A DNA stretch of 64,000 nucleotides from Tubulanus polymorphus. Lineage: Eukaryota > Animalia > Nemertea. Each line of letters begins with the position of its first letter. Within the stretch, counting starts at the first letter, position 1. The notes under the pieces were generated by a model. It was not told the DNA's origin. It ran no database searches and saw only the letters and a list, made by a program, of their open reading frames with translations. The position numbers were made by a program, and so were the translations under genes. Shown here piece by piece: positions 38,117-63,122 of this stretch. The stretch is from the NCBI RefSeq assembly GCF_964204645.1, contig NC_134025.1, forward strand, positions 13,950,001-14,014,000, read 5' to 3'.

Positions 38117-38199
38117 GTAAGCCTATCCACAAGGAAGCCCAAGCCGATCAATCAAGCAAGGGCGATTTCTAGCAGGCTTTAGGCCTAATAAATACTCAC

Positions 38200-39087: not shown

Positions 39088-39340
39088 AGTAATAGGGATA
39101 ATGGGCTTTCATACCAAAGTATCCCTTTTACTCTTAAAATATTTATATACATGAATAAAATATATATGAATAACATATAAATTGATAGATTATTCAATAT
39201 AAAAGTGTGAGTAAAGTGTGAGCTCTTATAGAATAGATATATAGATAGATATATTTACAACATTATTTCAATATTCATATTTGTGTGAGTTAGATTTTTA
39301 AACATTAAAAGTGTTAGTAAAGTGTGATTGAAATAATACA
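39088..39340. repeat. Left TIR of element 1 (terminal hairpin collapsed to 45 bp)
   Basis: Reverse complement of ~56838-57313, lacking most of the palindrome. Confidence 0.9.
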
Positions 39341-39395
39341 TAATATAAATCATTGAACTTCTAAAATCAATTTTAATAAAAAATTTAGTATTAAA

Positions 39396-42300
39396 ATGGA
39401 AGCAAATAAGTACTACTGTCCAACATGTAATATCAATATAGATACATCCCAAAAAGCAAGACACAATGAAACTAAAACACATTTAGAGAATAAATTAAAA
39501 TTATAATATAAAGATGATATATTAGAAACTAAATTAGAAGAATTAAAGAATGAAAAAGAAACATATAAATGTGATACATGTAATCAATCATTCAGTGATA
39601 AAAGATATTATAAAGAACATTTAAAATCTAAAAGCAATATTAGAAATATGAATAACGTTATTTTAGGTGAAGATTATTTTGATAAAGATAATGATAAGAA
39701 ACAGAAGACAATTAAAAGCATAAAAAATAAATTAAACAATAAAAGACCATACATGGAAGATGTAAGAAATTATATTAATTCATTAGATAATAAAAAAGAT
39801 ATAGAGATAACCGAAGCATTTAAAAGTGATATTGGTCCAGCAGCTATCGAGTTTAAATTTCATAAAGGTAAAACATTAGAAGAAAATAAAAAACATTTAG
39901 AAAATATGAAAGAAATAATAAAAATAATAGGCCTAACTGATGTTGAATACCCTAAAATTAGTATATCAGTTAAAGTAAAGTTTATAAAATCTGAAGATAA
40001 ACCAATATATAATATAAATTCTCATTCACAACATATTATATCTAAACAACATATAGATGAAAATTAGATAAATGTTATAATGAAGTAAAAACTAAAATAG
40101 AAGAGAAATATTTTGAAGGATCTGGTTTAATATTTGATGAAATAATATTTATGACTTTACATGTTTATAACACAAAATATAATAAGTTAACTAAATCAAA
40201 ACCAATAGATGAAAATAATGTATCATATTATAAAGAACCAGATATTGAAGCATCGAGTTATATCAAACTACCATTTAAAACTAATGCTGTAATAAATGTA
40301 CAAAATGAAGATGATAAATGTTTTGCTATGGCCAATTATAAGTTGCTTGCATCCAACAGAAGATATTACACATAGTTTTAGATTAACTCATTATAAACCA
40401 TTTGAAAATAATTATAAGATAGATAAGTATTCTGTTAGAATTAAAAACATCCCAAAAATAGAAAGAGATAATAATATAAAGATAAATGTATTTGATTTAA
40501 TCAAATTACCAAATACAAAAGGTAACAACATAAAACATTATACATTAGAACCTTTATATCTATCAAAAGATTATGATTCAAACGATGTTATAGATATACT
40601 ATATTATAAGAATCATTATATGTGGATTAAACAAATCGATTTATTTTTTAAATCAGAAAATGATCACCATAAAATATATCTATGTAGAAAATGTTTACAT
40701 AGATTCAGTAATGAAAGTACATTATTAAATCATAAACAATTATGTGAAAATCATGATTATTGTAAATTAGTTTTACCAAATGAAAAAGATAAAATATTAG
40801 AATTCAAAAAATATGATTACAAAAATAAAGTACCATTTGTAATATATGGAGATTTTGAATCATTAAATAAAGAACTAACTGATCTAGATAGAAAAGAAAT
40901 ATATTATAAAAGAAAGAAATTAAATTCTAATGAAAATGATTATTCTGAAGAACCACCAAAAACAAATACTATTAAAAAGATTCATCAATCAGCTGCAGCT
41001 TTCGGGTTATATATTAAATCTGATTATCCAGAACTAATTGAAAGTGAATATTATCATTATAGAAATGAAAATGTTATCAATCATTTTTGTGACTTATTAA
41101 TTGAATATGAAATAAGATTTAGTAAATTATTGAATACAAATATAGAAATTATAATGACAGAAGAAGATAAAGAAGAATTTGCGTTTGCAGATAAATGTTA
41201 TTATTGTGAAAAGATATTTAATTATAAAGATAAAAAAGTAAGAGACCATGATCATTTGAACGGAAAGTTTAGAGGCGCTGCACATGAGAATTGTAACTTA
41301 CAAGCTAAGAAAATTAACTTTGTACCAGTTATATTTCATAATCTATCAGGATATGATGCACATTCATTCATCAAACAGTTATGCCATAAAATAGATGAAA
41401 TTAATAATGAAATAGAAAGATTAAATTCAAATAGATCAAAAGATAAAATACCAACTTATAAATTTAGAATGTTAGCTAAAACATCTGATAATTATATATC
41501 ATTCCAATTTGGTTGCCTAAGATTTATAGATTCATATAGATTTTTAAATAGTTCATTAGATAACTTATCAAAATCATTAGTTGATGGTGAATTAAAAATA
41601 TTAAAGCAACACTACCCAAATAATGATGATTTTCAATTAATGAGATATAAAGGCGCAATTCCATATTCATTTTATAAATCACATAATGATTTTAATATAA
41701 CTGAATTATTAAAAGAACAATTCTATGATGAATTAAAAAATGAATATGTTAAAGATGAAGTATATAATAGAACATTGAATATTTGGAATCATTTTAGAAT
41801 GAAAAATCATGGGCAATTAGTAGATTTATATCTAAAATCAGATGTATTATTATTAACCGATATATTCGAAAGGTTTAGAGATGTAAACCTAAAATATTTT
41901 AACATTGATCCTTGTCATTGTTATTCTAGCCCAGGTTTAACATGGGATTGTGGATTAAAATTTACAGATATAAAAATGGATTTGTTAACAAATATAGATC
42001 AATTACTATTATTTGAAAAATCTATAAGAGGAGGAGTTTCAGGTGTATTAGGTGATAGATATTTCAATGTAAATGATAACCCTGGATATAAGTTATTATA
42101 TATAGATGCAAATAATCTATATGGTTGGGCAATGATGGAACCACAACCTTATGGAGTATTTGAATTAACTGAAGTTTTACAACATGAAAATAATTATAAA
42201 TTTGATTGGAAGAAAAGAATCCTAGATATTGCAGATGATTCAGATACTGGTTACTTCTTTGTTGTAGATTTAGAATATCCTGAACATATTAAATTTAAAT

Positions 42301-43436
42301 CTAGAAATCTAGCATACTGCCCCGAACATAAAACTGTAACTCATGAAGAACTATCAAATTATCAAAAAAGAATTAAACCCGAAAATCATATTCATACAGA
42401 AAAGTTAATGGTAACTCAAGAAGATAAATATAATTATGTAGTACATTACAGAATGTTAAAGTTTTATTTGAGTCAAGGAATGATTCTAAAAAAAGTACAT
42501 AGATATATTTCATTTAGTCAATCTAAGTGGTTAGAAAAATATATAGATTTTAACACCAAACAGAGAACTGAAGCTAAAACTGATTTTGAGAAAGATTTCA
42601 AGTTAATGAATAATGCATTCTATGGTAAGACTTGTGAAAATATTAGAAATAGAAATGATATTGAGTTAGTCAGTAATGGTAAAAGAATTAGACATTTACA
42701 AACATATCCTAAATTTATAGGTAACAGAATATTTGATGAAAATTTAGCTGCAGTTAAGATGAGAAGAACATCAATGAAATTTAATAAACCAATCTATATT
42801 GGCGCTTCAGTTTTAGAATTATCAAAATTACTAATGTATGAATTCTATTATAATATATTACAACCACTTTTTGGAGAAAAACATATAGAAATATTATATT
42901 TTGATACAGATTCTTACATATTAAAGATAAAAACTGATAACATAACAGATGATTTAAAAACATTAAAACATCATTTTGATTTCAGTAACTATCCTAAAAA
43001 TCATGAATTGTTTAGCAATGATAATAAAAAAGTTCCCGGGAAGTTTAAGGATGAATTAGGTGGTGAAGAAATGATAGAGTTCATAGGTATTAGATCTAAA
43101 ATGTATTCATATAAAACTAAAGAACATGAAGCTAAAAAGTTAAAAGGAATAACCAAAAATGTAGTAGAAAAGAATATTCATTTCAAAGATTACATCAATT
43201 GTATATTCAATGAAGAAGTTAGAAAACATAAGATGAGATGTTTAAGATCTGAAGATCATGAAATGTTTATTGAAGAAATCGAAAAGATAAGTCTAAACCC
43301 ATTTGATGATAAAAGATATATTTTAGATGATGGAATTCATACAGTTGCATATGGTTGCAATTTAGATGAATACTTAAAATTTAAAAGAGAAGAAACAAAA
43401 GAAAATGAGATAATGAAAAGAATTCTAACGTGTTAA
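39396..43436 (+). pseudogene. Protein-primed family B DNA polymerase (pPolB); catalytic part open from 40296, N-terminus frameshifted
   Basis: Exo motifs YGDFES, FHNLSGYD, YLKSDV; Pol motifs YIDANNLYG, KLMNNAFYGK, YFDTDS; endonuclease VII-like CYYC...RDHDHLNGKFRGAAHENCN insert; N-terminal C2H2 fingers from the ATG at 39396. Confidence 0.95.
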
Positions 43437-43465
43437 TCAAATTTTAATAAAAATATGTTATTAAA

Positions 43466-43819
43466 ATGGAGAGTAAACAAACACACAGTGAGAAAAACAA
43501 ATCATTTCTAGATAGAATAAAAGATACTACAAATGTAAAATCTGTAGATTATAAATTCAAAAAGTTAACAGAATTAACAATTCATAAGAAATATCTAATT
43601 ACAAATATTTATACAGTTACTAATAACTATGGAGATAAATTAGTTATACACTTAGAATATGAAGGATTAAAAGGAAATACACATAAATTCAGAACATATT
43701 TACCGGATAGATTTCATAGATTATCAAGTGAAGATTTAGAAGAATTATGTTCTGGAGATTTCTATTTCGTATACAAAGGTAAGAATGAAAAGGGGCACCA
43801 TGAAATAGATTTCGAATAA
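43466..43819 (+). CDS. Polinton hypothetical protein, 117 aa (possible OB-fold/ssDNA-binding)
   Basis: Intact beta-strand-rich ORF next to pPolB (T..YGDKLVIHL...YLPDRF...FVYKG); the fold is a guess. Confidence 0.6.
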   Translation: MESKQTHSEKNKSFLDRIKDTTNVKSVDYKFKKLTELTIHKKYLITNIYTVTNNYGDKLVIHLEYEGLKGNTHKFRTYLPDRFHRLSSEDLEELCSGDFYFVYKGKNEKGHHEIDFE

Positions 43820-43833
43820 AATATGTAAAATAA

Positions 43834-44592
43834 ATGGTAGAATTAAAAGAATACAGAATATTTGTTGATTCTAGAAAACTTACAAATTATAAATCTCATA
43901 ATTTACTAGTTCAATTAGATAGGGAATATAAAAATTGTGCGGATTTAAAATTAGTAAATATAAGTTTATGTAATTCTTTTTATAATATAACGGATAAAAC
44001 TATTGAAGATAATACTTTTTTAATTCATATTGGAAATGTAGATAAATGGTTTCATATAATTTTAAAACCAGGATTATATAATTTAGAAACATTAGGTTAA
44101 GAAATAAATCGAAGAGCACGGTTGAAAATTAGAAGAGATGATAAATTTTTAATTAGATTTATAAAAAGTGATAGCACAAATAAAATTAAAATAAAGGTAT
44201 ATGATGAAAGTCAACATGCATTTATGGTAAAAAAACCATTAGCTAAATTGCTAGGAATTGCACCAGATACTGTTACAGGAAACATAGATGGTAATTCAAA
44301 TATAATACCTTTTACACACTTTTATATTTATTGCAATTTAATCGAGCCTACAAAAACTTTCGAAGCAACTAAAGATACAATTTGTAATTCTAGTATATTA
44401 AATATTTTACCATTAAAAAATGTTAAACAATTTGGAACGCAAATAAATTATAATTTAACAGAATGTGATTTCAAACCATGCATTTCTCAATTTAATAATT
44501 TTAGATTAGAAATAAGAAATCATAATGGATATTTAATTGATTTGAATAACTTTCCTGTAATTTATGAATTAGTTATAAGATGTAGAGAGTAA
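43834..44592 (+). pseudogene. Minor capsid (penton, single jelly-roll) protein with one in-frame stop
   Basis: IFVDS..., L.NSFYNI, LKPGLYN, LAKLLG, FYIYCNLIE, IL.ILP, LEIRNHNGYLIDLNN pattern; TAA at 44098-44100. Confidence 0.8.
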
Positions 44593-44608
44593 TTTTTTCA
44601 CTATATAA

Positions 44609-44970
44609 ATGAATATAACTGTTGGACCGAGTATATGTTTTGGGTTTGATTTTAAACGTGAGAAAGAAATGAAATTTAACGTTAATGATGTAATTACACA
44701 TATCAAAAATATTGCATTTTCTAATGAAACAACATTTGAGTATGAAACAACAATAGATAAAGAAACTTTAAATGTAGAAAAGATTACTAATTTAAATAGA
44801 GAATCTTTAAGATTTTATGAATTAGATGAAGATTTTATTATAGATGATAAAAAATAATAAAAAATAATAATTGAAATATATACAAATGAAACTAGTAATG
44901 AAATAAATGTTGAATTAATCATCACTAAGATAACTAAATATTTTGATGATAGTAATTTTTTTGATAAATA
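44609..44970 (+). pseudogene. Polinton hypothetical protein (frameshift in an A-run)
   Basis: TAAATG start; 82-aa ORF with coding-like sequence continuing to ~44970. Confidence 0.5.
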
Positions 44971-44971
44971 A

Positions 44972-45192
44972 ATGAGTGATAATAAGTGGATAATAACTGG
45001 ATTATATAATGGCGCATTACTATCAGTTGGAACTGTTGGTTATTCAATGGTATTAAAAAAAGTATTTAAAATGGGAAGTGTTAATGTTGATAGATTTGAT
45101 ATAATGATATTTTAAAATTAGCATTAGCAGTTACTTAATCTAATTTAACTACTGATTATTTGGAAAAACAAAAATATATTCCTCCCATATAA
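44972..45192 (+). pseudogene. Small hydrophobic protein, disrupted
   Basis: TAAATG start; MSDNKWIITGLYNGALLSVGTVGYSMVLKK...; frameshift and stop. Confidence 0.55.
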
Positions 45193-45216
45193 ATACATAA
45201 TTATTTTACTAAATAA

Positions 45217-45639
45217 ATGGCTTCTGCAGTTATAACTATTATAGGATCGGCAATTGTTAACGCTTTAGCATTTACTGGTGGTGGATATTTATTTAAACAT
45301 ATTGATAAAAATAGATCATTAACAGAACAAAAAAGACATAACTTAGCATTAAAGAAATACAATAAAGCAGCAGAAGAATATAGAGGAAAACGACAAAACT
45401 ATATGGATTATATTAACAAGGAATTATATGATCAGAAGATTTCACATAGAGATTTTCAATCAGTTGATGATGCAATGAGTTTATATAACGCGGTAACCAA
45501 TAAAGAAAAATTACATCTATACAAACCTAAATTATCAGATTATTATACCCCAAGTAATGAACAGAAGAAATATGAAATAATTTGGATTTTAGGTGGAACT
45601 GTTATTGTTATATTTGTAGCATATAGATTTACTAATTAG
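45217..45639 (+). CDS. Putative virion membrane protein, 140 aa
   Basis: Hydrophobic N-terminus (MASAVITIIGSAIVNALAFTGGGYLF), coiled coil and C-terminal TM segment. Confidence 0.7.
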   Translation: MASAVITIIGSAIVNALAFTGGGYLFKHIDKNRSLTEQKRHNLALKKYNKAAEEYRGKRQNYMDYINKELYDQKISHRDFQSVDDAMSLYNAVTNKEKLHLYKPKLSDYYTPSNEQKKYEIIWILGGTVIVIFVAYRFTN

Positions 45640-45659
45640 TAATTTTTTTTGATAAATAA

Positions 45660-46092
45660 ATGGATGATAAAGTTGATAATATTGATATCATTCCCCATGA
45701 TATAAATAAAACTAAATCAAAAATATATTTAGAAAAACAAATATTAGAATTTGAAAGTGATTTAAAGATAAAAAAGAAAAAATTTAAAAAGTAAAATTAT
45801 ATATTATTTTATTATCAGCGGTTCAGTTACAATTAGTTCTGTAATAACATTTCTAGCAATATTCAGTCCATTAACACCTTTAGCTATATCAATTGGTGTG
45901 TTAGGATTAAGTTCAAGTGTTTTAACTGGTATAAGTTCAAAATTAAATATAAAAAGTAATAAAGAAAAAATTAAAACTAATATAAAAGAAATTAATAAAT
46001 TAAAAAATACACTAGATTATATAATAAGTTTAAATGGCCATATAACAGTTGAAGAACAAGATAAATTATTAAAAGAATTAATAAATTATTAA
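45660..46092 (+). pseudogene. Two-TM membrane protein, disrupted
   Basis: TAAATG at 45657-45662; hydrophobic ILFLLSAVQL/ISSVITFLAIF and LAISIGVLGLSSSVLTGI segments; stop or frameshift near 45790. Confidence 0.55.
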
Positions 46093-46108
46093 TTCTTTAG
46101 TTATATAA

Positions 46109-47435
46109 ATGGCAGATAGTTTTCCAAAAGCTTTCCAATATAATAAATCAATTAAATATAATATTCCAGCAATAGATTTTAATAAAGATATTTCATATAG
46201 AAATGAAGTTTTAAATTCATTAATTGATTTATATATTTATGTTACTGAAAGTAATAATGTTCATGTAAAGATGGAAAATATATTTCATGTGTATACAATT
46301 AATTTCAAAAATTTAAATGAGGCAAAACAATGGTTATTAAAATCTAATATGAAGTATTGGCAGAACCAATTAAATTTTGCTGTTTATTGTGCAACAACAG
46401 GATGTGGAATTAGTTGGAATGATCATTTAAACAAACCAAGTTTACCATTGATGTTATCACTTTTTAGATTTCATACTTATTTTCAAATAAAATTAATATT
46501 AGATGAATTAGAATGTCCTTTACCAGGTTCAAAATATTTTAAAGAATTGAATAATAATATTAATTTTTCTAAGTTTTATAAAATATGTAATGAATTTAAT
46601 ATTAATTCAAATAAAGATTTTAGAGCAAAAATTGGAACAATGGGTGGATTAGGAATATTGTATACTAAAGAATTTGGAAAAATAATGACAAATTCAGATA
46701 TAAGAACACTAAATTGGAATGAATTACCAAAATATTATAATAATATACAACAACAAAATAATAATGGTTGGGTTAATTTCATTTTAGAAAATAGTGAAGG
46801 TTTTACTAAAGCTGGAATACAAAGAATAAATCAATCTATTAGAACTTATTTGATATGTATTTTAGGTGCGCAAGTTGAAACAAGATCCCCAATAATTGGA
46901 AATGATAACACTTCATTCGATGCGCAGAAACAATTTAAAGTATTATTTGAAGATTCCATTCATAATGATAAAAATAGATCGATTCCGGAAAACATTGTAA
47001 GATATCAAAATTATTTAGATAAATCACATATTAGATTAAATTATTGTATAGGCCCTAATCTATTAATTATTTCTAATGATTTAGTATTAAAGATGGGAAA
47101 TATAATTGGTTATAATAATCTAATTAAAACTGCAACAATAAATAATTCATTTGGATTGAATGATATAAATAAAAAGATTATCACTGCTCCAAAATTAATG
47201 GAAGGTGAAAAAAAATAAAAAACATATTCAATCAAGAGAAACTAAAACTAATAATATTAAATTAAATAATGATTCTAAAATAAAAGATTACAATACATCA
47301 GAAAATATAAAAACTGATAATATTCAACTTGAAATAATTAAACTAAATGATGATAATAAATCCCATGAAAATACTAAATTAGCTTTAACTTGTATAGGAA
47401 TTGTTATAGGAGGAATATTATATTTTAAATTTTAA
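46109..47435 (+). pseudogene. Conserved-looking Polinton protein (~440 aa) with a C-terminal TM anchor; frameshift in an A-run at ~47210
   Basis: WQNQLNFAVYCATTGCGISW...FRFHTYFQ; the 76-aa downstream ORF supplies the TM tail. Confidence 0.65.
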
Positions 47436-47451
47436 TTTTTTTATTATATAA

Positions 47452-48522
47452 ATGGATGTAGAAGGTAGAGAAGATTATGAAATGGAAGGCATGGGAAATA
47501 ATGATGATGCTAATACTAACAATGATGATTATATGACTGCTGATACTAATATTGATAATGATAATGATACGACATATAATTCTAATTTAGCAGATAGTGG
47601 TTCTAAAGCCCCATCAACAGATGAATTTGATAGAAGAACTAGATCGAGAATACCTACTGAAAATGAAAATCCAGATTTAGTAAGACAAAATTTAGAAAAT
47701 ATTGAATTTATGTATGATTTTCAACGTGTATTTAAAGAATCTGGATATAATATAAATGATAGAGGCGCCAGACTTTTAGTACAAGAATTAAAATCTTTAG
47801 ATGGTGAATATTATTATCATTTGAAAGATGATTATTATATTGATATCTCTTATAAAAAACAAAACAAAATATTAGCAGAATCAACTGATAAAAATAAAGA
47901 AATAGAAAAATTAAAGTCTGATTTAGATCGTCAAGTAATTGATAAAATAGAATATAAGCAAAAAGAATCACGTTTAAAAAAAGAAATTAATAATTTAAAA
48001 GATAATTTAGAAGTACTGAAAGGTGAAAGAGATATATTATTAAAAGAATTTGGTAATAATTTTAAAAGATTAAAAGATGTTTTTAAAAGATATCTGTTAA
48101 AACCAAATTCTGAAATATCATTGAAAGATAGAATAAAATTATTATTTAAATTAGAAGGAATAACAATTCTTTCAATTCTAACAGCTGTAACTATGGTATT
48201 CACAACAATTGGTTTAGTTATATCAAATGCTTTGAATTCTACTCCTACTCCCAATAAACCGGATAAACCCCCGAATGATAATAATTTTATACAAGATGAA
48301 GTTAAGGATGGTTTAAAGAAATTAGCAAAATATTTATGGGAACTATCTAAAAAGTCTGCTGCAGCTTTACCAGGAATTATTGCATCAATTGTTGGTTTTA
48401 TATTGAAATCTGCTGGGAATATTCTTAACTTTGCGGCTGAACATATTATTTTATTTTTAATTACAGTTGTAAGTGCTATTATTTTTGGATTAGTGAAAAT
48501 GATATCAAAAAATATCAAGTAA
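47452..48522 (+). CDS. Coiled-coil multi-TM/amphipathic protein, 356 aa
   Basis: Acidic N-terminus, coiled coil, then EGITILSILTAVTMVFTTIGLVI...AAALPGIIASIVGFILK...HIILFLITVVSAIIFGL. Confidence 0.75.
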   Translation: MDVEGREDYEMEGMGNNDDANTNNDDYMTADTNIDNDNDTTYNSNLADSGSKAPSTDEFDRRTRSRIPTENENPDLVRQNLENIEFMYDFQRVFKESGYNINDRGARLLVQELKSLDGEYYYHLKDDYYIDISYKKQNKILAESTDKNKEIEKLKSDLDRQVIDKIEYKQKESRLKKEINNLKDNLEVLKGERDILLKEFGNNFKRLKDVFKRYLLKPNSEISLKDRIKLLFKLEGITILSILTAVTMVFTTIGLVISNALNSTPTPNKPDKPPNDNNFIQDEVKDGLKKLAKYLWELSKKSAAALPGIIASIVGFILKSAGNILNFAAEHIILFLITVVSAIIFGLVKMISKNIK

Positions 48523-48562
48523 ACATGATCAAAAATAAATAATTAATTTTTTTGTTAAATAA

Positions 48563-49810
48563 ATGAGTGGGAGTTATATCAATCCTTCTAAGAATCATAG
48601 AATATCTAATGCTATTAAAGCAGAAAGATCACATCATATAATTACTCATAACCCTTCTAATATTAATCCTGATGAAACTTTATATGTTAGAATCCCTCGA
48701 TTAACACAAAATACTTTTTATGTTCCAAATAGTATTTTTTTATCAGCCGATATAAAAGTAATCGGAAATAATAATAATTATGTTGTTGATAATGTTGGAA
48801 GATATTTGATTAAAAAGTTAACAATAAAGATTGGTCCAGAAACAGTTTTCTCATTAGATGATTATAATTTATTTATGCATTATAAAGATTTATGGTTAAC
48901 TAAAGAAAATAGAAATAATATGATATTTCAGGGTATTCAATCGGAAAACCATAATAAATTAAGATCAGGAGCTAATGACGCAATAGTAACTCGTACCGCA
49001 GATAATTTGATAAAAAAGATTTATGGAAGCAAATATAAAATTCCATTAGACTTTGAATTGATAAATAATAATGCACCTTTATATAAATACGCAATTCAAG
49101 AAGACGTTATATTCGAAATAACATTTGCTCCTGTTAATGAAATTGTATTATCTAGCGTTGTTAAAGATATGAGTTATAAATTATCGAATATATGTTTAGA
49201 ATATGACACAGTAACTGATGAAAATATTTCAAGCATAATTCAAACTCAATACAATCAAGGATTTTCATTATTATATGATTATATTAATAAATTTAAAACT
49301 GTAACTATTAATGCAAATGATGAAATTATTAATGAGAATATTAACTTCCCAAGAAGATATATTAAAGGCATATTAATATTTTTTACCATTGCAACATATA
49401 CTAATGGCGCAATAAATGTTGATAAGTATTATAATCCTGAAATAACAAAAGTAGAAATAACTATCGAAGGAATAGCAAATAAAATATTTTGTCAAGGAAT
49501 GAGAATGATAGATCAATGGCCAGAAATTAGAAAACATTTAATGAATGAAAAAGTAAAATCATCTGAAAATTGTAATATTAATCAAATTGATTATTATACC
49601 GGTAATAAATATGCATTATGGTTAGATTTTAGAACAACAGAGGATAATTCATTACATGGTTCTGGAAAAAAACTACAGAACACTAAAGATGGAATACAAT
49701 TATTCATGACAAAGAATAAAGGAAGTCTAAATTTCAAAATGCACATTTATATTATATCTGACGCGCAATTAAATATTGTAAATTCACAATTAGATAGTGT
49801 TATGTATTAA
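48563..49810 (+). CDS. Major capsid protein (double jelly-roll), 415 aa, intact
   Basis: Size, position and beta-rich pattern (NPSNINPDETLYVRIP, LIKKLTIKIG, KYKIPLDF, YKLSNICLEYD, FPRR.IKGILIFF, YALWLDF, MHIYIISDAQLNI). Confidence 0.8.
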   Translation: MSGSYINPSKNHRISNAIKAERSHHIITHNPSNINPDETLYVRIPRLTQNTFYVPNSIFLSADIKVIGNNNNYVVDNVGRYLIKKLTIKIGPETVFSLDDYNLFMHYKDLWLTKENRNNMIFQGIQSENHNKLRSGANDAIVTRTADNLIKKIYGSKYKIPLDFELINNNAPLYKYAIQEDVIFEITFAPVNEIVLSSVVKDMSYKLSNICLEYDTVTDENISSIIQTQYNQGFSLLYDYINKFKTVTINANDEIINENINFPRRYIKGILIFFTIATYTNGAINVDKYYNPEITKVEITIEGIANKIFCQGMRMIDQWPEIRKHLMNEKVKSSENCNINQIDYYTGNKYALWLDFRTTEDNSLHGSGKKLQNTKDGIQLFMTKNKGSLNFKMHIYIISDAQLNIVNSQLDSVMY

Positions 49811-49842
49811 AATTTTAACTTTAATAAAAATTTATATAATAA

Positions 49843-50973
49843 ATGGAAGGTGGAATATATGAAATACAAACTCCAAGTGAAATGATAACAGATATATATT
49901 ATATATTACCTTATGATGAATACATTAAGTATTTTGGAGATTACTTTAATCAATTCAAATATAGAATAAGTAAAATAAAAGATAATATTGAAACTAAAAT
50001 AGAAAATAATATTGAAACTAAAATAGAAGATAAGAATGATATTGAATATAAAATAGAAGATAATATTGAAACTAAAATAGAAGATGTAACAGCATCTACA
50101 TCTTATAATATACCCTCTACATATGATATTGAATCAAAAAAAGATTATTATAATCCAAAATATTGTGATGTATGTAAGAAATATATATCATATAAAAATT
50201 GGGCATCACATAAGAAATCAAAGAAACATATAGAAAAAGAAAAGAATAATAATGATAATAATATATCAGTTAGTAATATAAAAGATAATGTTAACCCAAT
50301 TGAAACTAATGATACCATAAATAATATAACAGATAATGTAATAAATGATGTTAACCCAATCGAAACTAATGATAATGATATAACAGATAATGAAATAATT
50401 GATGATTCTAAAAAACATTGTAACATTTGTGATTTAGATATTTCTAAAAGTAATTTTTCTAAACATAAAAAATCTAAGGGGCACATAGAAAATGAAAAAG
50501 AATTAATATGTGATTATTGTAATAAAGAAATTGAACCTGTTGATGAAATTACTCATTATAAATCAAAATTACATCTAATTAATGTTTATAAAGATGTGGG
50601 TATGTTACCATTGTTAGATGAACCAAAGAAATATATCAAATATTTTGATCCTGAAACTAAACAATATTATATATTCTTTAAGTTGTTATTTGATAAATTA
50701 TTAGCTTATGCAGAAGATAATCCTGACCAAATATATAAATTAGCGTATAATGGATACCTAGATTTATTTAATTTAATAAATGATTTTGAATTTGATTTTG
50801 ATGGTGATAATTCTAATGATTACTTTGAAAAATTAAGAATTAAAGCTGGATTAAGTGATGATGATCGTAGAATGAAGGATGAAATAGAATTAATAAATAT
50901 GCCAAAGACTTCTGATGAATTTGATATAAACAAAGATGATTTTATAAATGTATTAGAAACAAAATTAGAATAA
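49843..50973 (+). CDS. Zinc-finger protein with three U1/matrin-type C2H2 fingers and internal repeats
   Basis: CDVC..SHKKSKKH, CNIC..KHKKSKGH, CDYC..THYKSKLH; DNIETKIE and DVNPIETND repeats. Confidence 0.8.
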   Translation: MEGGIYEIQTPSEMITDIYYILPYDEYIKYFGDYFNQFKYRISKIKDNIETKIENNIETKIEDKNDIEYKIEDNIETKIEDVTASTSYNIPSTYDIESKKDYYNPKYCDVCKKYISYKNWASHKKSKKHIEKEKNNNDNNISVSNIKDNVNPIETNDTINNITDNVINDVNPIETNDNDITDNEIIDDSKKHCNICDLDISKSNFSKHKKSKGHIENEKELICDYCNKEIEPVDEITHYKSKLHLINVYKDVGMLPLLDEPKKYIKYFDPETKQYYIFFKLLFDKLLAYAEDNPDQIYKLAYNGYLDLFNLINDFEFDFDGDNSNDYFEKLRIKAGLSDDDRRMKDEIELINMPKTSDEFDINKDDFINVLETKLE

Positions 50974-50984
50974 TTATTATAAAA

Positions 50985-51330
50985 CTATTTATATATCTAT
51001 AAAAATATTTAGATATCTATGCACTAGACGTATGAGTAAGAAAGTAAGAACCCAAGAATCCTTGCCAAGAAATATAAATTATAAACATAAATTATAAACA
51101 TAAATTATAAACATAAATTATAAACATAAATTACAAACATAGTTTTAATATATAATTTATTCATTATTATATATTTCATTTAATAATTCATATTTCTATG
51201 GACTAGACGTACGTAAGAATCCAAGATTCTTGCTAAGAAAGTAAAAAGGTAAGAATCTTACTTTCTTACTCGTACATCTAGTACATAGATATATAAATTA
51301 GTTTCTATAATATTCCAAATTATAAATAGT
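50985..51330. repeat. Inverted-repeat-bounded spacer with about five 13-bp tandem repeats (ataaattataaac) between the convergent gene blocks
   Basis: atatctatgcactagacgtatgagtaagaaagtaaga is inverted at ~51256-51292; tandem array at ~51074-51140. Confidence 0.8.
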
Positions 51331-51941
51331 TATTTTATAAATTTATATTCATAGGGAAATTGAAGTCTCAGTAATAATTTTGAACCTTTATTATTCTTTA
51401 ATTTATTCATATATTCATCATGTAATTCAGTAGGTATAATTTGATTTTCTTCCAATGATTGTTGCATAGATTTTCTATCTTTGTTATAAAATAAAACTAG
51501 AAATCTTATATTCTCCCTAAAGTCTTTAACAATTGAATTATATTTTTGATTTAAAACCCACGTTGTTATCCCAAAATGTCTTCCAGAGAAAGCTAAATAA
51601 CATAAGTCACTTTCTCTAACTTTTGAATCATGTAAATTTGCACAATCATCTATAATGAATAATGTATTTGATCCTTTATAAATATCTAATGCTATTTTTA
51701 TACAATTATCTAAATTTTCTTTTACTGTTTTAGGATCTAATATAATAAACTTTTTCGTCTTAACTATATCTCTATTATATGTTTTATTCATTTCATAAGT
51801 AGGACAAAATAATATTATATTATCAAAATGATTCTTATAAATAGTTTCTAACAAGTCTAATATGAAATGTGTTTTACCACAGTTTGTTACTCCAGTAACT
51901 AACATATTATGCGGTTCAAATATAAATAAATCTTTATTCAT
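51330..51941 (-). CDS. A32-like (FtsK-HerA) packaging ATPase, intact
   Basis: Walker A GVTNCGKT, Walker B LFIIDD, arginine finger SGRH, conserved Q (VLNQ), REN motif. Confidence 0.92.
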   Translation of the reverse strand: MNKDLFIFEPHNMLVTGVTNCGKTHFILDLLETIYKNHFDNIILFCPTYEMNKTYNRDIVKTKKFIILDPKTVKENLDNCIKIALDIYKGSNTLFIIDDCANLHDSKVRESDLCYLAFSGRHFGITTWVLNQKYNSIVKDFRENIRFLVLFYNKDRKSMQQSLEENQIIPTELHDEYMNKLKNNKGSKLLLRLQFPYEYKFIK

Positions 51942-53023
51942 TTATTCTTTTAATTTTACTAGATAAAATCCATTCATTAAATTTATCATCGTATCCTTTA
52001 TATTTCACCAAAGAATACTTTTTTCCTTTAAGAGTTTTTGTTTTCAATACTTTTTCTATTTTGTATTCTATTTCATCTGGATTTGGTACAAGTGATAATT
52101 CTTGTTCATAGAAATAACCTAATATTTCTTCATCTTTTAAATCTTCTAATTTAGAAACAAATGGTTTAGTTAATATTATCTTTTTAATTTTAAATATTTC
52201 TTCTGTAAAATTTGGGGTATAACCTTTATAAAATGTTTTTCTATATTTAGATATTCTTACGTGTTGTCCAATTTTAAATTTAGGTTCTCCGAAATCATGT
52301 GTAACAAACGCTCCATATAAATTATTCCAAACTATTTCTGAATTATCTTCTTTTCTAGCTTGTATAGGTTTCATATTTATAGAACTATGTTTAGAATTAT
52401 TATAACCTTTCACTAAATCATCTAATACATCGATATATTTATGTTTCATTAGCAGTAAAATATTTCCACATTCTAGTTTTCAATGTTTTATTAAATCTTT
52501 CTATAATAGATGCTTTTTTATCTGAGTGTGTTGAAAAATAATCTACATCGTTATCAGATAATAGTTTTTTGAAATGTTTGTTGTAGAATTCCTTACCTTC
52601 ATCAAATTGTATCTTATCTGGAATAGCTTCTTTAAATATTGATTTAAAAGCATTTGTTACTTCTATTCCAGTTTTATTTTTGATTGGAATTGACCATGCG
52701 TATCGACTGAATATGTCTATAACATTCAATATCCAGAAATATCCTTTGTTGTATTCTTCTAAGTTCTTCATGTCAATTAAATCTGCTTGCCATTGTTGAT
52801 CGATATATGAAACCATAACTTTTCTTGTTAAATAAGTTTTATCCATTTTCTTATGGATTTGATATGTTGGTTGATTTTGTAACCATGATTTTAATTCACT
52901 ATATCTTATGTCACCATTTTCATTATCAGATTTAATTTTATTTCATAATTCTGTAACGTTAGAATATGATACTTCACTTTCTGGGTTATAATATAAATCT
53001 CTTAAATATTGTTCTTTTTTCAT
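51934..53023 (-). pseudogene. Retrovirus-like (rve) integrase with C-terminal chromodomain, frameshifted
   Basis: WQADLIDM, IDIFSRYAW, QFDEGKEF, ASIIERFNKTLK; chromo-like IEKVL...YSLVKYKGYDDKFNEWI. Confidence 0.93.
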
Positions 53024-53029
53024 CTTATT

Positions 53030-53389
53030 TTAATCCATTAATAATAATTTAGATTTAGTTTCAATGGTTTTATGATTTGACTTATTTCTGGTATAATAGG
53101 TTTATTGTCATTGGAATCATATTTATCATCAGATTTGAATTTTGATTTATATATTACACCGGATAATATAATAACTGTTACTAATCCAATTGTAATATAT
53201 AATTTATAATTACTTCCAGCATTAGAAGAATTAGATGGATTATTATTTGAATCAATATCAGGTGATTCATTTATATCAGTTAATTTCTTTTTCTTAGCTT
53301 TTTTTTAATTCTGAAGATCTTTTACCTAATTCTCTTGCCCATTTAATTTGTTTCTCGGATCTAGGCTTCTTCTTGACATCATCACTCAT
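53030..53389 (-). pseudogene. Small basic single-TM protein (homolog of 62724-63119), frameshifted
   Basis: Aligns by eye with the intact 131-aa ORF of element 3. Confidence 0.7.
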
Positions 53390-53978
53390 TTATTTTAGTT
53401 AATTTTTGTTCTGATTCATTTTCTGTTTCGCCGTTTGGTTGTAGTACATCTGTTTCGTTCTTACCTGATTTACATTCCATAGGCTTGATGTTCGAAAATG
53501 TAATGACGCCAGTAGAAATTAATGTCATAACCGATCCTAATTGAAATGAAGCATAACCAACCCATTTTTGTAATTCAGTCATAACTAAGTAGTCATTTTT
53601 CAAATCACTATATAATTTATTTTCATCATCAATTGGTATTAACCGGTTACAAAATTTTGAATAACATTTGACAATACCATCTGAAATAGAATCATTTATT
53701 CTAGCTAATCTTGCTTCTTCATAAATCTTAAAATATTTTATTACTTTATCTGGTTTCATAGAGTCTAATTCTTGAAAAGTAATAATTCTATTTAAAAACT
53801 CTTTAGATTTTCCGCCAGCAATTAGTAATTCAAGATGGTGTTTACAATATAAATAGTATTCATAATCTATATTACAATTAACTTGAATAGAAACAACTGG
53901 ATCCTTAGTATCACTAATACCCAAATCATCTAATGTCTTTTCAATATCAATACTATTCTTATTAGATTTCTTTGACAT
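53382..53978 (-). CDS. Polinton hypothetical protein, 198 aa
   Basis: Intact in elements 1 and 3 (62129-62731); TAAATG start; hydrophobic patch near the C-terminus. Confidence 0.8.
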   Translation of the reverse strand: MSKKSNKNSIDIEKTLDDLGISDTKDPVVSIQVNCNIDYEYYLYCKHHLELLIAGGKSKEFLNRIITFQELDSMKPDKVIKYFKIYEEARLARINDSISDGIVKCYSKFCNRLIPIDDENKLYSDLKNDYLVMTELQKWVGYASFQLGSVMTLISTGVITFSNIKPMECKSGKNETDVLQPNGETENESEQKLTKINE

Positions 53979-54302
53979 TTATATTAGAGAAATTTAATAA
54001 GAAAAATATTATAAGTATTCTGATACTAGATAGTTAAAGTTAAAGAATTCTAGTATTGACTACTGATACTAGCTATTTGAATTTAAAGAATTTCTATTTG
54101 AATCTATTCAAAATATAAAGTATTCTCTTTTTGAAAAGAAAATATTAAAAATATAATAGAATTCACTAGCTAGTTGAAGTTATTGTTTTTTTAATATATT
54201 TTATTTGAATTCTATTTGATATCACCATGTGGATGCCGTACGGCACCATCTCACTACTTTTGTTTATCTATTAGGAGCAGTAATTATAACTGTCCAGATA
54301 AG

Positions 54303-54980
54303 TCATTTCGGATCCTTGATATCAAATTCCTCAACGTATTGTTCATTATTTGGATCATTGTTCCATTGATCAATAAATTTCTTTGCCTTTGTTAACTGTT
54401 CTAAATATAACTGTAAATCTAGTTTATTAGATTTTATTTTATTTTCTTCCTTTTCAAGAGGTCTTAAATTTTTCCAATTCCAAATAAGTTTTTTATTGTA
54501 TTCATCATTCATGTTAAATTTAGATATTGGTAACACGTGATCAATATGGTAATAATCCCCATAATTATCTATATTCATTTTATCATCGAATTGATATATT
54601 ATCCATGATTTGAAAAATTCATCTGAACAACCCAATAAATTAGATAGTGTTTCTGAATGCGTTTCTTTGTTGAATAATTGTGTTAATCTAGATCTTAAGC
54701 ATTGTTTCAATCTAAAATTAAGATCTTTTTGATATCTTTCTCTCATATATTCTGCCATAAAATAATTATAATGTTCTATATTATCTTCTCGGTATTGTTT
54801 GGTATATAGTTTAAAACAAGTTTTACAGCAATATTGAAAACCATCTTTGCTAATCTTACGCTTACTAAATTATGTTAAAGCTAATTTATCTAATTCACAC
54901 TTAGAACACTTCTTGTAGTATATATTTATGACGCCAGTGTTATTTGTAATATTGATAATTTGTGGTTGTTCTGGTTCCAT
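54303..54980 (-). pseudogene. Zn-finger plus HNH-like endonuclease, N-terminal part disrupted
   Basis: CSKC...CKTC; HIDHVLPISKF...NWKNLRPL...N..KSNK; internal TAA near 54870. Confidence 0.8.
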
Positions 54981-55089
54981 TTATTATATGTATTTTTTAC
55001 TAAATTGGTTAATATTTTAGAATCCTCTTCCATTTCTTCGACCAACGTCATCCTTTTTCATTCCTCGCTCTAAATCATACCAGTTACAA

Positions 55090-55430
55090 TACCCGCGTCA
55101 CATGCGGACATACAGGCGCGCTTTTGCTTAATGCGCATGCGTTAATCATAATTATATATTCATTCTATAAATTCTGTAAAATAGAAACAACACATGCGTT
55201 ACATGCGTCACATGCGGCCATTTATGGCCGGTTTTGCTTAATGCACATGTTTTAATCATAATTATATATTCTTTCTGTAAATAGAAACAACTGAACACAT
55301 AAGATATCAAAACGTGTTCGCATTAGGCAAGACCGGGCATTCAAGCCCGGTTTGGATCAATGCGCATGCGCTAATCATAATTATATATTAATTATGTAAA
55401 TTCTGTAAAATAGAAACGACCGAACATAGA
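55090..55430. repeat. Intergenic array of about three ~110-130-bp repeats with GC-rich palindromes
   Basis: ttgcttaatgcgcatgcgttaatcataattatatatt and ggccatttatggcc recur; homologous to 60700-61015. Confidence 0.8.
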
Positions 55431-55523
55431 ACATTCACCAAGCAGATTTACACAATACATATACAAGTATGTTCGGTCGTTGTATTGACAAAATTTATAG
55501 TTTCAACTAAAACATTATTTTAT

Positions 55524-56245
55524 TTATAATTCCAACCAGAACTTTTCAATTTCTGGATCATTGTCAAGCATTTTTTCAATTTCTGGCATATATCTGATTA
55601 CTTCACTAAATGACAAACTTAATAATTGGAATCTTTTATATCTAAATAATCTACCTACGCTTCTTAATTTTCTTTCATGTCTGGAACTAATACTTATATA
55701 TTTTTTTAACCAAGAAGCCCAAGAAATCCCTGCAGTTTGTTTATTAAACATTAAAAATCCCATATTTAAACAATCCCCGAAAATGATATAATCCCATAAA
55801 TGCTTTGCTTTTTTACATAACAAGGTTCTATAATTTTTTTTCAATAAAACAGTTATTTCATTAAATGATGTTACACCTTTCTTTAAAACTTACATCTTTT
55901 TCATTTGATAATTTTGATTTTAAAAACTTATTTAACTCATTTCCGCTCATTTTCTTTTTAGTTTTTGTTCCTTTTAGTCTTAACAATATTTCTACATTGG
56001 TTGTTGGTCTTTTCGGTAATGATGTTACGCTAGATTGCTGGTTTTCTATTATTTTTTCTAAAATTAATGTCATGATGGTAATATAAATGTTTTTTAACTT
56101 CTTCTAACGTTTCATCTTCTGTATCGAAAGATTCTTTTACTTCAGTACCCATGTCCATTGGTTCGTCTTCCACCATTTCGGTTGGTTCATCTTCCATTTC
56201 GATTGTCCTCTGAGAATTAAGAGTACTTCTTGATACAAACGACAT
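55524..56245 (-). pseudogene. First gene of the right arm, hypothetical, frameshifted
   Basis: Three abutting ORF fragments (acidic N-terminus; C-terminal WASWLKKYISIS.RHERKLR.V.RL). Confidence 0.55.
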
Positions 56246-56837
56246 TTTATTCAACTAAACGATATCAGCGGTAGAACAGGAACCGCGATATTAAATGATA
56301 TAAATATTTTCAAGTCTATCGTTTCTAATTATTATAACTTATTATAGTTCAAGTTATTATCTATCTAACGTAAAATAGAATTAACTGTATGAAGTTGTAG
56401 TTGTCAAAAGCACTTAAAGGTCTCATATTTAATAGCCCTAATAACTACAAAAAACAGTACTTACATTTAGATTTATAATTGTAAACTATAAACTCCTAAT
56501 TTCGTTTCGATAGATAGAATATCCTGAGCACAATGTAACAGCGTCTGTTCATTTCCGGGGCGATTTCTAGAATGACACGTCGTTGATTATTATACGTCAT
56601 CTGGTTCCGGCACACCTTTCTAGAATATTCTACACGTTTCTGATTATGACATGTCATCTCTATTCAGAGTTCCAGCACACCTTTCTAGAATTTTCTATAC
56701 ACGTTTGCAATAATGATTCATATGTCTCGGCGTCATAGTAACAGCTGTAACAGCTGTGAATTTATAGATTTATTCAATAGTTCATTACATGAAATGTATA
56801 TAGGCTCAAATAGAATCATGTTCTAGTATAAACAGCT

Positions 56838-57313
56838 ATGCATTATTTCAATCACACTTTACTAACACTTTTAATGTTTAAACATCTAACTCACACAAAT
56901 ATGAATATTGAAATAATGTTGTAAATATATACTTTTATATCTATTCTATAAGAGCTCACACTTTACTCACACTTTTATATTGAATAATCTATCAATTTAT
57001 ATGTTATTCATATATATTTTATTCATGTATATACATATTTTAAGAGTAATAGGGATAATGGGCTTTCATATCAAAGGTTGAAAGGGCTAGTGAGTAAAAA
57101 ATGAAAAATATGAAAATAATAATAATTTCTATTTGAATTAGGAGTGAAACTCATATAAAATGAAAAATAAATTCGAGTGTGCGAGAATTATTTTTCATTT
57201 TATATGAGTTTCGCTACTAATTCAAATAGAAATTGTTATTATTTTCATATTTTTCATTTTTTATGAGCTCGACCTTTCGACCTTTGGTATGAAAGCCCAT
57301 TATCCCTATTACT
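56838..57313. repeat. Right TIR of element 1, including a 269-bp terminal palindrome (57045-57313)
   Basis: agtaatagggataatgggctttcata...tatgaaagcccattatccctattact, centred near 57178. Confidence 0.92.
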
Positions 57314-57681
57314 ATCTTCTACTCGATCAAAGAAGAGGAAAATGAGGACTGCAATGACAAGATACAGAAATTCATAGAAAATGATCTAGGAATTGCGGAC
57401 TTCAAACCGGTACTCGATCGAGTACACAGATTGGGAGGACATAAACGCGGAAAAACCAGACCGATAGTAGCGAAATTCCATAAATACACCGACAAGGAAA
57501 GAGTTCTTAGCGCAGGTCGTAATCCGACTGGATCAACCTCGTTTGGAATGTCCGAACAAATTCCAAAAGAATGGCAGGATCGGAGAAAATCGCGAATGGG
57601 TGAATATCGGGATGCGAAAAAGAATGGTTATAAAGTGAAATTCGTTAGAGATAAACTAATCTTAAACGGTAAAGAAGTGTT
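57314..57681 (+). pseudogene. L1/Tx1-like ORF1, C-terminal part (RRM/CTD), cut off by element 2
   Basis: IFYSIKEEENEDC...LDRVHRLG...RPIVAKF...MSEQIPKEWQDRRK...VRDKLILNG; continues 38729-39087. Confidence 0.85.
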
Positions 57682-59118
57682 AGTAATAGGGGTAATAGGT
57701 CAAAGGTCGAAGGGTCGAGCTCGTAAAAAATGAAAAAAACAATAATTTACAGTTGAATTAGTCGCGCACACTCCTAATTCAACTGGAAATTATTGTTATT
57801 TTCATTTTTTACTCACTCGCCCCTTCAACCTTTAACCTGAAAGCCTATTACCCCTATTACTCTTAAGATATTCACATATACATGAATAACATTTAAATTG
57901 ACAGATTATTCAATATAAAAGTGTAAGCTCTTATAGAATATATTGATAGATATATTTACAACATTATTTCAATATTCATATTTGTATGAGTTAGATTTTT
58001 AAACATTAAAAGTGTTAGTAAAGTGTGATTGAAATAATACATGATATAAATCATTGAACTTCTAAAATCAATTTAGTAAAAAAATATGTATAATAGATGG
58101 AATCAGAACAACCACAAACTATAAATATTACAAATAACACTGTTGTCATAAACATATACTACAAGAAGTGTTCTAAATGTGAATTAGATAAATTAGCTTT
58201 AACAGAATTTAGTCAGCGTAAGATTAGCAAAGATGGTTTTCAATATTGCTGTAAAACTTGTACTAAACTATATACCAAACAATATCGAGAAGATAATAGA
58301 GAAGCTTACAATGATTATATGACAGAATATATGAGAGGAAGATATCAAACAGATCTTAATTTTAGATTAAAACAATGCTTAAGATCTAGATTAACACAAT
58401 TATTCAACAAAGAAACGCATTCAGAAACACTATCTAATGCATTGGGTTGTTCAGATGAATTCTTAAAATCATGGATTATATATCAATTCGATGATAAAAT
58501 GAATATAGATAATTATGGTGAATACGTTCATATTGATCACGTGTTGCCGATTTCTAAATTTGACATGAATGATGAATACAATAAAAAACTTATTTGGAAT
58601 TGGAAGAATCTAAGACCTTTAGAAAAGAAGGAAAATATAATTAAATCTAATAAACTAGATTTACAGTTATATTTAGATCAACTGGATAAAGCAAAGACAT
58701 TTGTTGAATTATGGAATAGTATTTCACAGAATCAACCGCATTCTGAGGTTTTAATCAGTGGTTAGAAAGCCGGCAATTCTATTTGAGCTTTGTATGTATA
58801 TAATACATAGCTCTTGTTTACTACTAAAACATATGTTGCCAAATATATCTTGTTTTCAATTCTAAAGAATTAATTAACTTCATCATAAAGAACATCTGTT
58901 ACAATCCAGGCAAACGTGCAGAAATAATTAGTTTGGTCGAACGTGCGCCACGTCGGCAGTTAGAAATCAACTTTCACATACATAGTACGTATTGGATATT
59001 CTCTCTCAAAACACAGTTTACAGTTCTAAATCTAAGTGTAAGTACCGTTTTTGTAGTTATTATGAAGTAGGGAAACCTTTAAACATATTTAAGTACAGTA
59101 ATTCATTTTCACGACATC
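57682..59118 (+). mobile_element. Polinton-family element 2: left end plus intact HNH gene, interrupted by element 3
   Basis: Starts AGTAATAGGGGTAATAGG; 180-bp hairpin 57682-57861; TIR homologous to 39130-39370; the other end is not in the window. Confidence 0.85.
58097..58765 (+). CDS. Zn-finger plus HNH-like endonuclease, intact 222 aa
   Basis: CSKC/CKTC and HIDHVLPISKF...NLRPL...N..KSNK. Confidence 0.85.
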   Translation: MESEQPQTINITNNTVVINIYYKKCSKCELDKLALTEFSQRKISKDGFQYCCKTCTKLYTKQYREDNREAYNDYMTEYMRGRYQTDLNFRLKQCLRSRLTQLFNKETHSETLSNALGCSDEFLKSWIIYQFDDKMNIDNYGEYVHIDHVLPISKFDMNDEYNKKLIWNWKNLRPLEKKENIIKSNKLDLQLYLDQLDKAKTFVELWNSISQNQPHSEVLISG

Positions 59119-61015: not shown

Positions 61016-61149
61016 TGTATTATTTAGATATCAAGGAATCGAAACAACTTATCAAAAGCAACGAAGAATGAAAAAGGATGACGTTGGTCGAAGAAATGGA
61101 AGAGGATTATAAAATATTAACCAATTTAGTAAAAAAATATGTATAATAA

Positions 61150-63119: not shown

Positions 63120-63122
63120 AAT

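Follow-up and report, generated by a model that had tools for sequence, protein, structure and literature searches.

A poxvirus-like late start signal at the genes of an endogenous Polinton of the nemertean Tubulanus polymorphus, and the helper virus it may point to

The question of how the Polintons of animals are transcribed, and whether they form particles unaided, is raised here by a window of 64,000 nucleotides from the nemertean Tubulanus polymorphus (NC_134025.1, positions 13,950,001 to 14,014,000; coordinates below are those of this window, the whole stretch analysed), which holds an 18.2 kb Polinton/Maverick-type provirus, element 1, at 39088 to 57313. An earlier note, made from the sequence, had claimed that the structural genes of this element share a poxvirus-type late promoter. 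We found that element 1 has a Polinton gene set, that most of its genes start at TAAATG behind a T-rich element peaking at position -12, that its starts fall into two classes, and that the motif has an all-or-none distribution among relatives. Since most genes carry a poxvirus late-type start and many relatives lack it, the element likely borrows the machinery of a co-infecting large DNA virus. With moderate confidence, we take the TAAATG signals to be initiators for the RNA polymerase with which a poxvirus-type virus transcribes its genes in the cytoplasm, and the element to be a virophage-like parasite.

Seventeen starts of element 1 were picked by eye, after the sequence had been seen. TAAATG stood at 13 of them. 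Among the remaining 430 sense ATGs it was present at 22 (Fisher p 7.6e-13), and among 511 non-gene ATGs that come first after a stop, at 41 (p 5.7e-11). A blind caller of open reading frames (ORFs) gave TAAATG at 8/14 ORFs of at least 100 aa and at 46/758 background ATGs, and its misses were mostly internal ATGs of broken genes. The strict 10-mer TA(T/A)ATAAATG was present at 7/17 starts, at none of the 430 other sense ATGs, and nowhere in the 39 kb of host flank, where 45 of 1555 ATGs read TAAATG. T at -12 and A at -4 were invariant among the 13 TAAATG starts of element 1. These counts confirmed that the start motif is real, and the enrichment lay far above the levels of AT content and TAA-ATG gene packing that, by the earlier note, would have refuted its claim.

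The ten ATGs named in that note for element 1, and two in element 3, a further copy, all exist and read TAAATG. It had placed eight of them in the strict 10-mer; seven are, and the eighth, 53978 on the minus strand, is one letter off (TAATATAAATG). Of the T-rich runs that it described at similar spacing, the one at 46109 is interrupted. The two starts in element 3 (62129 and 62724) do keep the motif, but they are not independent evidence because they are copies of 53978 and 53389 in a region about 91% identical. Calling the motif a promoter of structural genes was too narrow, as it also opens the zinc-finger and HNH-like genes and, in relatives, pPolB (loci L050 and L073) and integrase (L001 and L036). 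In element 1 itself, TAAAATG and not TAAATG opens pPolB, the 117-aa gene and the right-end gene.

The two start classes differ in what lies upstream. The T-run class has AATTTTTT-type T-runs before the capsid, 356-aa, 369-aa, 140-aa and small membrane-type genes, and the A-run class has TAAAA(A/T) before the pPolB, 117-aa, penton-like, zinc-finger, ATPase and HNH-like genes. The genes and sites of element 1 are as follows.

39377 to 39398, plus strand: A-run class start of pPolB (TAAAAA, 9 nt, TAAAATG)
39396 to 43436, plus strand: protein-primed PolB (pPolB) with an endonuclease VII-like insert (PF03175, E 2.3e-13; PF02945, E 4e-5), its 5' part split into pieces
43447 to 43819, plus strand: 117-aa gene with a TAAAATG start of the A-run class and a homologue in L003; by resemblance, its product may be an OB-fold single-stranded DNA-binding protein
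43815 to 44592, plus strand: penton-like gene (a label we assume from resemblance) that opens with TAAATG of the A-run class and is interrupted by an in-frame stop; the L003 homologue is one 254-aa ORF
44590 to 44857, plus strand: 82-aa ORF with a T-run class promoter-like site (ATG 44609) and a homologue in L003
44953 to 45115, plus strand: short membrane-type ORF with a T-run class site (ATG 44972); relatives of the TAAATG type and of the other type have homologues
45198 to 45639, plus strand: conserved 140-aa gene with a T-run class site (ATG 45217)
45641 to 46093, plus strand: broken gene with a T-run class site (ATG 45660); its L003 homologue has a weak SLATT match (E 0.0013, below cut-off)
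46090 to 47218, plus strand: conserved 369-aa gene with a T-run class site (ATG 46109), shorter than in relatives
47433 to 48522, plus strand: 356-aa gene, conserved among relatives of either type, with a T-run class site (ATG 47452); the C-terminus of its product is hydrophobic
48544 to 49810, plus strand: major capsid protein (MCP) of 415 aa with a double jelly-roll fold (ATG 48563)
49824 to 50973, plus strand: zinc-finger protein gene, 376 aa, with an A-run class TAAATG start
51005 to 51300, no strand: long inverted repeat where the zinc-finger and ATPase genes converge, predicted at -47 kcal/mol without shuffle control
51330 to 51960, minus strand: A32-type packaging ATPase (PF04665, E 2.5e-11) with an A-run class TAAATG start at 51941
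51934 to 53023, minus strand: rve integrase with chromodomain, in pieces (PF00665, E 3.6e-10); the start at 53023 reads TAAGATG
53027 to 53408, minus strand: broken small membrane-type gene with a TAAATG start at 53389, a single ORF in element 3 (62724)
53382 to 53997, minus strand: conserved 198-aa gene with a T-run-like site (ATG 53978)
54303 to 54999, minus strand: broken HNH-like nuclease gene with an A-run class TAAATG start at 54980
55524 to 56245, minus strand: right-end gene in three pieces, with a TAAAATG start; member of a family of 134 proteins
56243 to 56770, minus strand: host Pol II-type cassette with predicted splicing, preceding the right-end gene

A published table of vaccinia promoters gives T-N9-TAAATG for late, T-N8-TAAATGG for mixed and TAAAAA-N14-TAAA for intermediate promoters (PMC11423596). 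A T-containing core lies 5-7 nt ahead of TAAAT(G/A) (PMC5294985), and TAAAT contains the start site and templates a poly(A) leader through slippage (PMC4542343). We found TAAAT overlapping the start codon at 13/17 starts of element 1 and 76/90 starts of TAAATG-type relatives, with a T-rich element 5-7 nt before it (T 0.57-0.79 at -15 to -11, peak at -12). As judged from sequence, the T-run class fits the vaccinia late and mixed, that is post-replicative, layout, and the A-run class may be said to resemble the intermediate type. The post-replicative promoters of vaccinia and salmon gill poxvirus in those papers share with the element TAAAT over the ATG, the upstream T-rich element, a favoured G after ATG (53/76 relatives' starts) and a second, A-run class. 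Unlike the poxviruses, the element has an A-run spacer of about 9 nt rather than 14 and encodes none of the machinery.

The MCP had 921 relatives, none of them in viral_contigs, phages or solved sequences. A search with an MCP alignment of 49 recovered metagenome loci, of which the best 80 of 87 confirmed were kept, and 3 short genome loci. Without any labelling of loci, TAAATG opened the MCP gene in 20/37 loci with an intact N-terminus, and in 13/14 at identities of at least 50%. Among the 39 loci of at least 2 kb and at least 3 ORFs, 21 had no TAAATG start, three had one, none fell at a share of 35-65%, and 15 reached at least 65%. GC content did not set the type: both types were found at 26-44% GC, with only the TAAATG type below and only the other type above. 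The AT-rich loci L015, L019, L025 and L027 (26-30% GC) had TAAATG at 1/18 starts, compared with 19/22 in L006, L007, L034, L036 and L039 (36-44% GC). In a labelled contrast of 21 TAAATG-type and 24 other loci, kept after near-duplicates and short loci were dropped, the counts were 76/90 and 2/147, a comparison that is partly circular.

Both types carry the same core genes. Accessory genes of giant-virus type, which speak for contact with a large virus, were seen only in TAAATG-type loci: the HNH-like gene, and deoxynucleoside kinase genes in L003 (10343-10981, minus strand) and L006 (2898-3380, minus strand), whose homologues pointed to no donor. The consensus of the TAAATG type has A at -18 to -16, T at -15 to -11 with its peak at -12, A at -4 and G after the ATG; of the 147 starts of the other type, 113 carry A or G at -3. 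In L007, L011 and L033, where the ATG is displaced, TAAATATG variants occur, as would be expected of a DNA initiator rather than of a translation context. In a quick tree built from 71 capsid rows, without a virophage reference, the window fell in a clade with SH-aLRT 96 in which 16/16 labelled rows were of the TAAATG type. The start-type label changed 4 times on this tree compared with 14.5 times for shuffles, and the tree leaves room for a single origin of the type.

If the helper reading is correct, the provirus would reside in the nucleus. During stress or infection, host Pol II would express the DNA-binding-like protein of the right end by way of a heat-shock cassette, and a linear copy, once free, would rely on the post-replicative machinery of the helper to replicate and to express the capsid genes. 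Transcription would begin within AAA and slippage would add an A leader; such a start could account for the T fixed at -3, a position held by A or G in non-TAAATG relatives. Because the start signal is clade-specific and GC-independent, the proposal can be tested directly by whether 5' ends carry A leaders, and it predicts that this animal, for which no poxvirus-like helper is known, has one.

Several observations weigh against a poxvirus-type helper. The layout that the earlier note had read as the mark of a pox-like co-infecting virus does fit vaccinia late and mixed promoters, but no pox-specific gene was found among the 21 + 20 + 51 proteins of the window and related loci scanned with Pfam, and a motif scan of viral_contigs gave 74 loci, none poxvirus-looking. 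The intermediate arrangement of TAAAAA, 14 nt and TAAA is missing: both words occur at 6 element-1 starts, about 9 nt apart. Membership of a start class is not fixed across relatives, and TA-rich initiators are simple and can converge. Looser T-run/TAAATG starts are present in non-pox giant-virus contigs, namely L149 (6/11), L143 (3/5) and L150 (3/7), all three selected by the motif itself, and L159 (5/17). Two of three IMG/VR relatives of the HNH-like gene lie between split capsid-gene segments of giant viruses (NCLDV, or nucleocytoplasmic large DNA viruses; L161 and L162), a contact with large viruses, yet with non-pox ones. Sister loci of the other type encode VLTF3-like ORFs (L016:6543-7049, E 6e-4; L020:5082-5576, E 3.6e-5; both below the Pfam cut-off). 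The host Pol II-type cassette before the right-end gene is a further difficulty, as is copy number, which nuclear activity explains more easily: capsid-gene read depth was about 720-1020 in an independent DNA run with the same species label (1934 million letters read), which would imply roughly 200-900 copies under the assumption of a 0.5-2 Gb genome. In this host, the family seems to have a high copy number.

Signs of cytoplasmic transcription in coding DNA did not help. AATAAA was equally undepleted in both types (0.93 vs 0.94), splice-donor avoidance did not differ between them, and non-TAAATG relatives also show head-to-head gaps of 12-49 nt; since the AATAAA test and the gaps come out alike in both types, neither demonstrates cytoplasmic transcription. 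TTTTTNT was avoided more in the TAAATG type (0.57, z -3.9) than in the other (0.82, z -1.4). This is a weak sign because T5 runs are depleted in both types (0.61 and 0.65), and A runs also in the TAAATG type.

The alternative that survives best, though we consider it rather unlikely, is a self-directed nuclear programme in which host Pol II and an early, heat-shock-driven element protein (right-end or zinc-finger) activate the TAAAT starts with no helper. The cassette speaks for it. It has two three-unit heat-shock elements (56618 and 56683), two CCGGAA and one TGACGT, which we take to be heat-shock, ETS and CRE motifs, followed by a GTAAGT donor (56459-56464) and a TTTAG acceptor directly before ATG 56245, a predicted 5' UTR intron. 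The earlier note had called the provirus intronless, which is probably wrong for the right-end gene. Three-unit heat-shock elements were absent from the 39 kb of host flank and from 15.6 kb of coding DNA, and 0/2000 shuffles reached two of them; the cassette is kept in element 3. The cassette combines enhancer motifs with a predicted intron, so that a nuclear Pol II tier is likely for the element. The high copy number points the same way. Hallmark genes of a coral polintovirus are reportedly expressed, and other MELD viruses have annotated TBP- and VLTF-like genes.

The sister loci with VLTF3-like ORFs also bear on this alternative. In non-TAAATG loci, TATA lay within 30 nt of the ATG at 59/131 starts, whereas dinucleotide shuffles gave 37.7 +- 3.7 and never more than 52. 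The pattern was clearest in L016 (7/12) and L020 (8/11), at 47-49% GC. Their layout resembles the late promoters of African swine fever virus (ASFV), whose late genes are described as beginning at TATA with a median leader of 9 nt. These sisters may cut both ways, as initiators tracking different helpers or as the mark of an element-borne late factor, and because they encode a weakly matching VLTF3-like protein, a self-encoded late programme stays in play. In the window, TBP, TFIIB and VLTF3 had no match, nor did a two-sequence VLTF3-like profile. Moreover, TAAAT acting as a TATA-type box would place the start of transcription downstream of the conserved ATG, and TAAAT acting as an initiator would make the leader so short that scanning ribosomes would hardly use it. 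The T fixed at -3, opposite to the A/G of other relatives, also argues against a programme of this kind. If it were true, a nuclear late programme would have converged on the poxvirus initiator, which would be likewise unusual. As a side observation, most genes of L016 and L020 begin 4-20 nt past TATA, often with ATTTTCT about 10 nt further up.

We think it improbable that the helper is instead a non-pox giant virus, of Megaviricetes or another lineage, with an AT-rich late initiator resembling TAAATG. Such a virus would suit the T-run and TAAATG/TAATAATG starts of L143, L149, L150 and L159, the HNH relatives in the NCLDV capsid genes of L161 and L162, and the fact that no marine-invertebrate poxvirus was among the matches listed. 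Those contigs are far looser, however, with 5/17 in L159 compared with 76/90 in the Polintons, and the published late motifs of other lineages differ (TATA in ASFV and pacmanvirus; TCTA in CroV).

It is very unlikely that the promoters are a relic of a helper-dependent ancestor in a family that now spreads or decays as a transposon without using them. Many genes of element 1 are broken, by division into pieces or in-frame stops, and reads from the host species are mostly 90-99% alike, as a relic would predict. Elements 1 and 3 nevertheless have the starts in common, and these persist across loci whose MCPs are 30-76% identical and whose GC content is 20-44%, which implies long selection in the lineage.

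Hardly credible, and largely refuted, is that the motif is a by-product of AT content, stop-start packing, translational re-initiation or an AATAAA poly(A) signal: AATAAATG contains AATAAA and element 1 is 24% GC, but the all-or-none pattern is independent of GC and only 3/76 starts of relatives are true TAA-ATG junctions with the stop of an upstream gene. Of these 76 starts, 27 face a divergent gene and therefore have no upstream gene that could end at the site. Another 38 come after a gene in the same direction, and the other 11 are at an edge; any in-frame upstream ORF ended at the TAA of the motif in only 15. In the window, the previous stop was 14-233 nt away at the 8 starts measured. T at -12 occurred at 60/76 starts compared with 37/127 non-start TAAATG in the same loci (p 3.5e-12). 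Orientation and T(-12) enrichment together exclude AT content, packing and poly(A) signals; several sites also read TATAAATG, not AATAAATG. A trans-splicing acceptor was ruled out by the lack of AG ahead of the ATG at the 13 TAAATG sites of element 1.

A poxvirus-type helper would have a wider meaning. It would extend the protist model of endogenous virophages to animal germlines and make Polinton start motifs pointers to unseen large viruses. More speculatively, and we regard this as doubtful, protease-less animal Polintons could be endogenous virophage-like parasites whose sub-lineages switch helper via the initiator, with TAAAT for an undiscovered invertebrate poxvirus-type virus and the TATA of L016/L020 for an asfarvirus-type one. 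Infection would then activate the provirus through the heat-shock cassette, and the germline copies, in their hundreds, could act as an inducible anti-helper defence, like endogenous mavirus-like elements (EMALEs) in protists.

Comparison with known systems gave a mixed picture. With Polintons/Mavericks (Polintoviricetes; adintoviruses and MELD viruses of Starrett et al., PMC8502044), the element shares pPolB, rve integrase, A32 ATPase, double jelly-roll capsid, inverted termini and 6-bp target duplication. Unlike them, as they are described in the literature searched, it has long terminal palindromes, element-wide TAAATG starts and no detected Ulp1/adenain protease, a cysteine protease counted among Polinton genes (PMC11071308). 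Mavirus and the EMALEs of Cafeteria burkhardae (PMC8547959, PMC10945749) are likewise small integrating viruses with a double jelly-roll capsid, rve integrase and pPolB. Their type-specific start motif matches the late promoter of a large virus, so that promoter sharing predicts the helper, and motifs differ between types, as among the relatives of the element. Unlike them, the element has an animal host, TAAAT instead of TCTA, no known helper and an added heat-shock cassette. The Polinton-like viruses that Barth et al. 2024 (PMC11296320) sequenced together with occlusion bodies of entomopoxviruses are also small Preplasmiviricota linked to invertebrate poxviruses; as described there, they encode a cysteine protease and lack rve integrase. 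The main text of that paper does not contain 'promoter', 'motif' or 'TAAAT', and 'promoter' has 0 occurrences in the main text of the coral and adintovirus papers. No account of poxvirus-type promoters in animal Polintons was found in the literature searched, which lay outside subscription journals and preprint supplements. Further background came from PMC7163114, PMC11788076, 10.1101/2022.07.28.501842, 10.1101/2023.10.06.561300, 10.1101/2024.03.23.586382, 10.1101/2025.04.19.649669 and 10.64898/2026.10.13.758929.

The gene content of element 1 is that of a Polinton/Maverick, with pPolB, rve integrase, A32 ATPase and a double jelly-roll capsid. The MCP model (pLDDT 89) matched the PBCV-1 and SGIV capsids in Foldseek (E about 1e-16), with the mavirus capsid ranking below them (E 1.8e-11). 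The endonuclease VII family, to which the insert in pPolB is similar, cleaves branched DNA. No peptidase family (Ulp1/adenain) was found with Pfam among 21 window proteins and the accessory ORFs of relatives, and the 369-aa and 356-aa products had no family. Pfam also gave no match for the penton-like region (43834-44592) or its L003 homologue, and an Atlas search with the 369-aa protein no useful match. In line with the earlier note, which saw no RNA polymerase in the element, none of the element ORFs scanned matched an RNA polymerase family. The ATPase start sits inside the last integrase codons and the 53389 start inside the last codons of the 198-aa gene; both overlapped genes end in INE. 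The C-terminal domain of the right-end protein is all-helical, with a weak likeness to ParB-type helix-turn-helix domains. It had no Foldseek match at E 0.001, and its best VIA Z values, 6.3 (Raf1) and 5.1-5.2 (ParB/Spo0J), are within common background. As modelled, this domain is possibly DNA-binding.

The boundaries of element 1 are clear. The first 39 kb or so of the window consist of animal DNA rich in repeats, with 37% GC; beyond, GC falls to 21-25%, and element 1 itself is 24% GC compared with 37% in the host flank. Its termini read AGTAATAGG...CCTATTACT, so that AGTAATAGG is read inward from either end, and ATCTTC flanks both ends. Polintons duplicate 6 bp of target. The insertion interrupts an ORF that we take to be ORF1 of an L1-type retrotransposon. 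The end features and neighbouring copies are listed here.

39082 to 39087, plus strand: left 6-bp target-site duplication, ATCTTC
57045 to 57313, no strand: imperfect terminal palindrome of 269 nt, with a predicted DNA hairpin of -112 kcal/mol
57314 to 57319, plus strand: right 6-bp target-site duplication, ATCTTC
57682 to 64000, no strand: additional family copies and fragments, whose ends lie at 57682 and 59119

Of the terminal palindrome, the left end of element 1 retains no more than a short remnant. Long imperfect palindromes mark element ends at 57045-57313, 57682-57861 and 59119-59387, two of them 269 nt long. The copies in 57682 to 64000 keep the same starts (58097, 59470, 61150, 62129 and 62724) and the same Pol II-type cassette, near 60089-60261. 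The HNH-like gene is present at 54303-54980 (minus strand) and again at 58097-58765. At 57830-58100, the left-end sequence precedes the HNH-like gene in the next copy, and the same sequence precedes pPolB in element 1, so that the A-run start module is reused between genes.

Some minor observations were also made. A host exon at 38123-38527 (minus strand), which lies about 560 nt to the left of the provirus, resembles the start of COQ6 in a motif and had no Pfam match. In the TAAATG-type locus L036 (4144-4746, minus strand), a 201-aa protein with an N-terminal CxxC...CxxC zinc ribbon, likewise without a Pfam match, is a possible transcription factor. The inverted repeat at 51005-51300 holds an internal tandem repeat and could serve as a terminator or 3'-end signal. 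Finally, CpG-rich repeats of about 110 nt with GCGCATGCG, which we presume to be NRF1-like, and TGACGT lie upstream of the HNH-like gene at 55050-55450 and 60700-61080, where they could possibly form a second host-type promoter.

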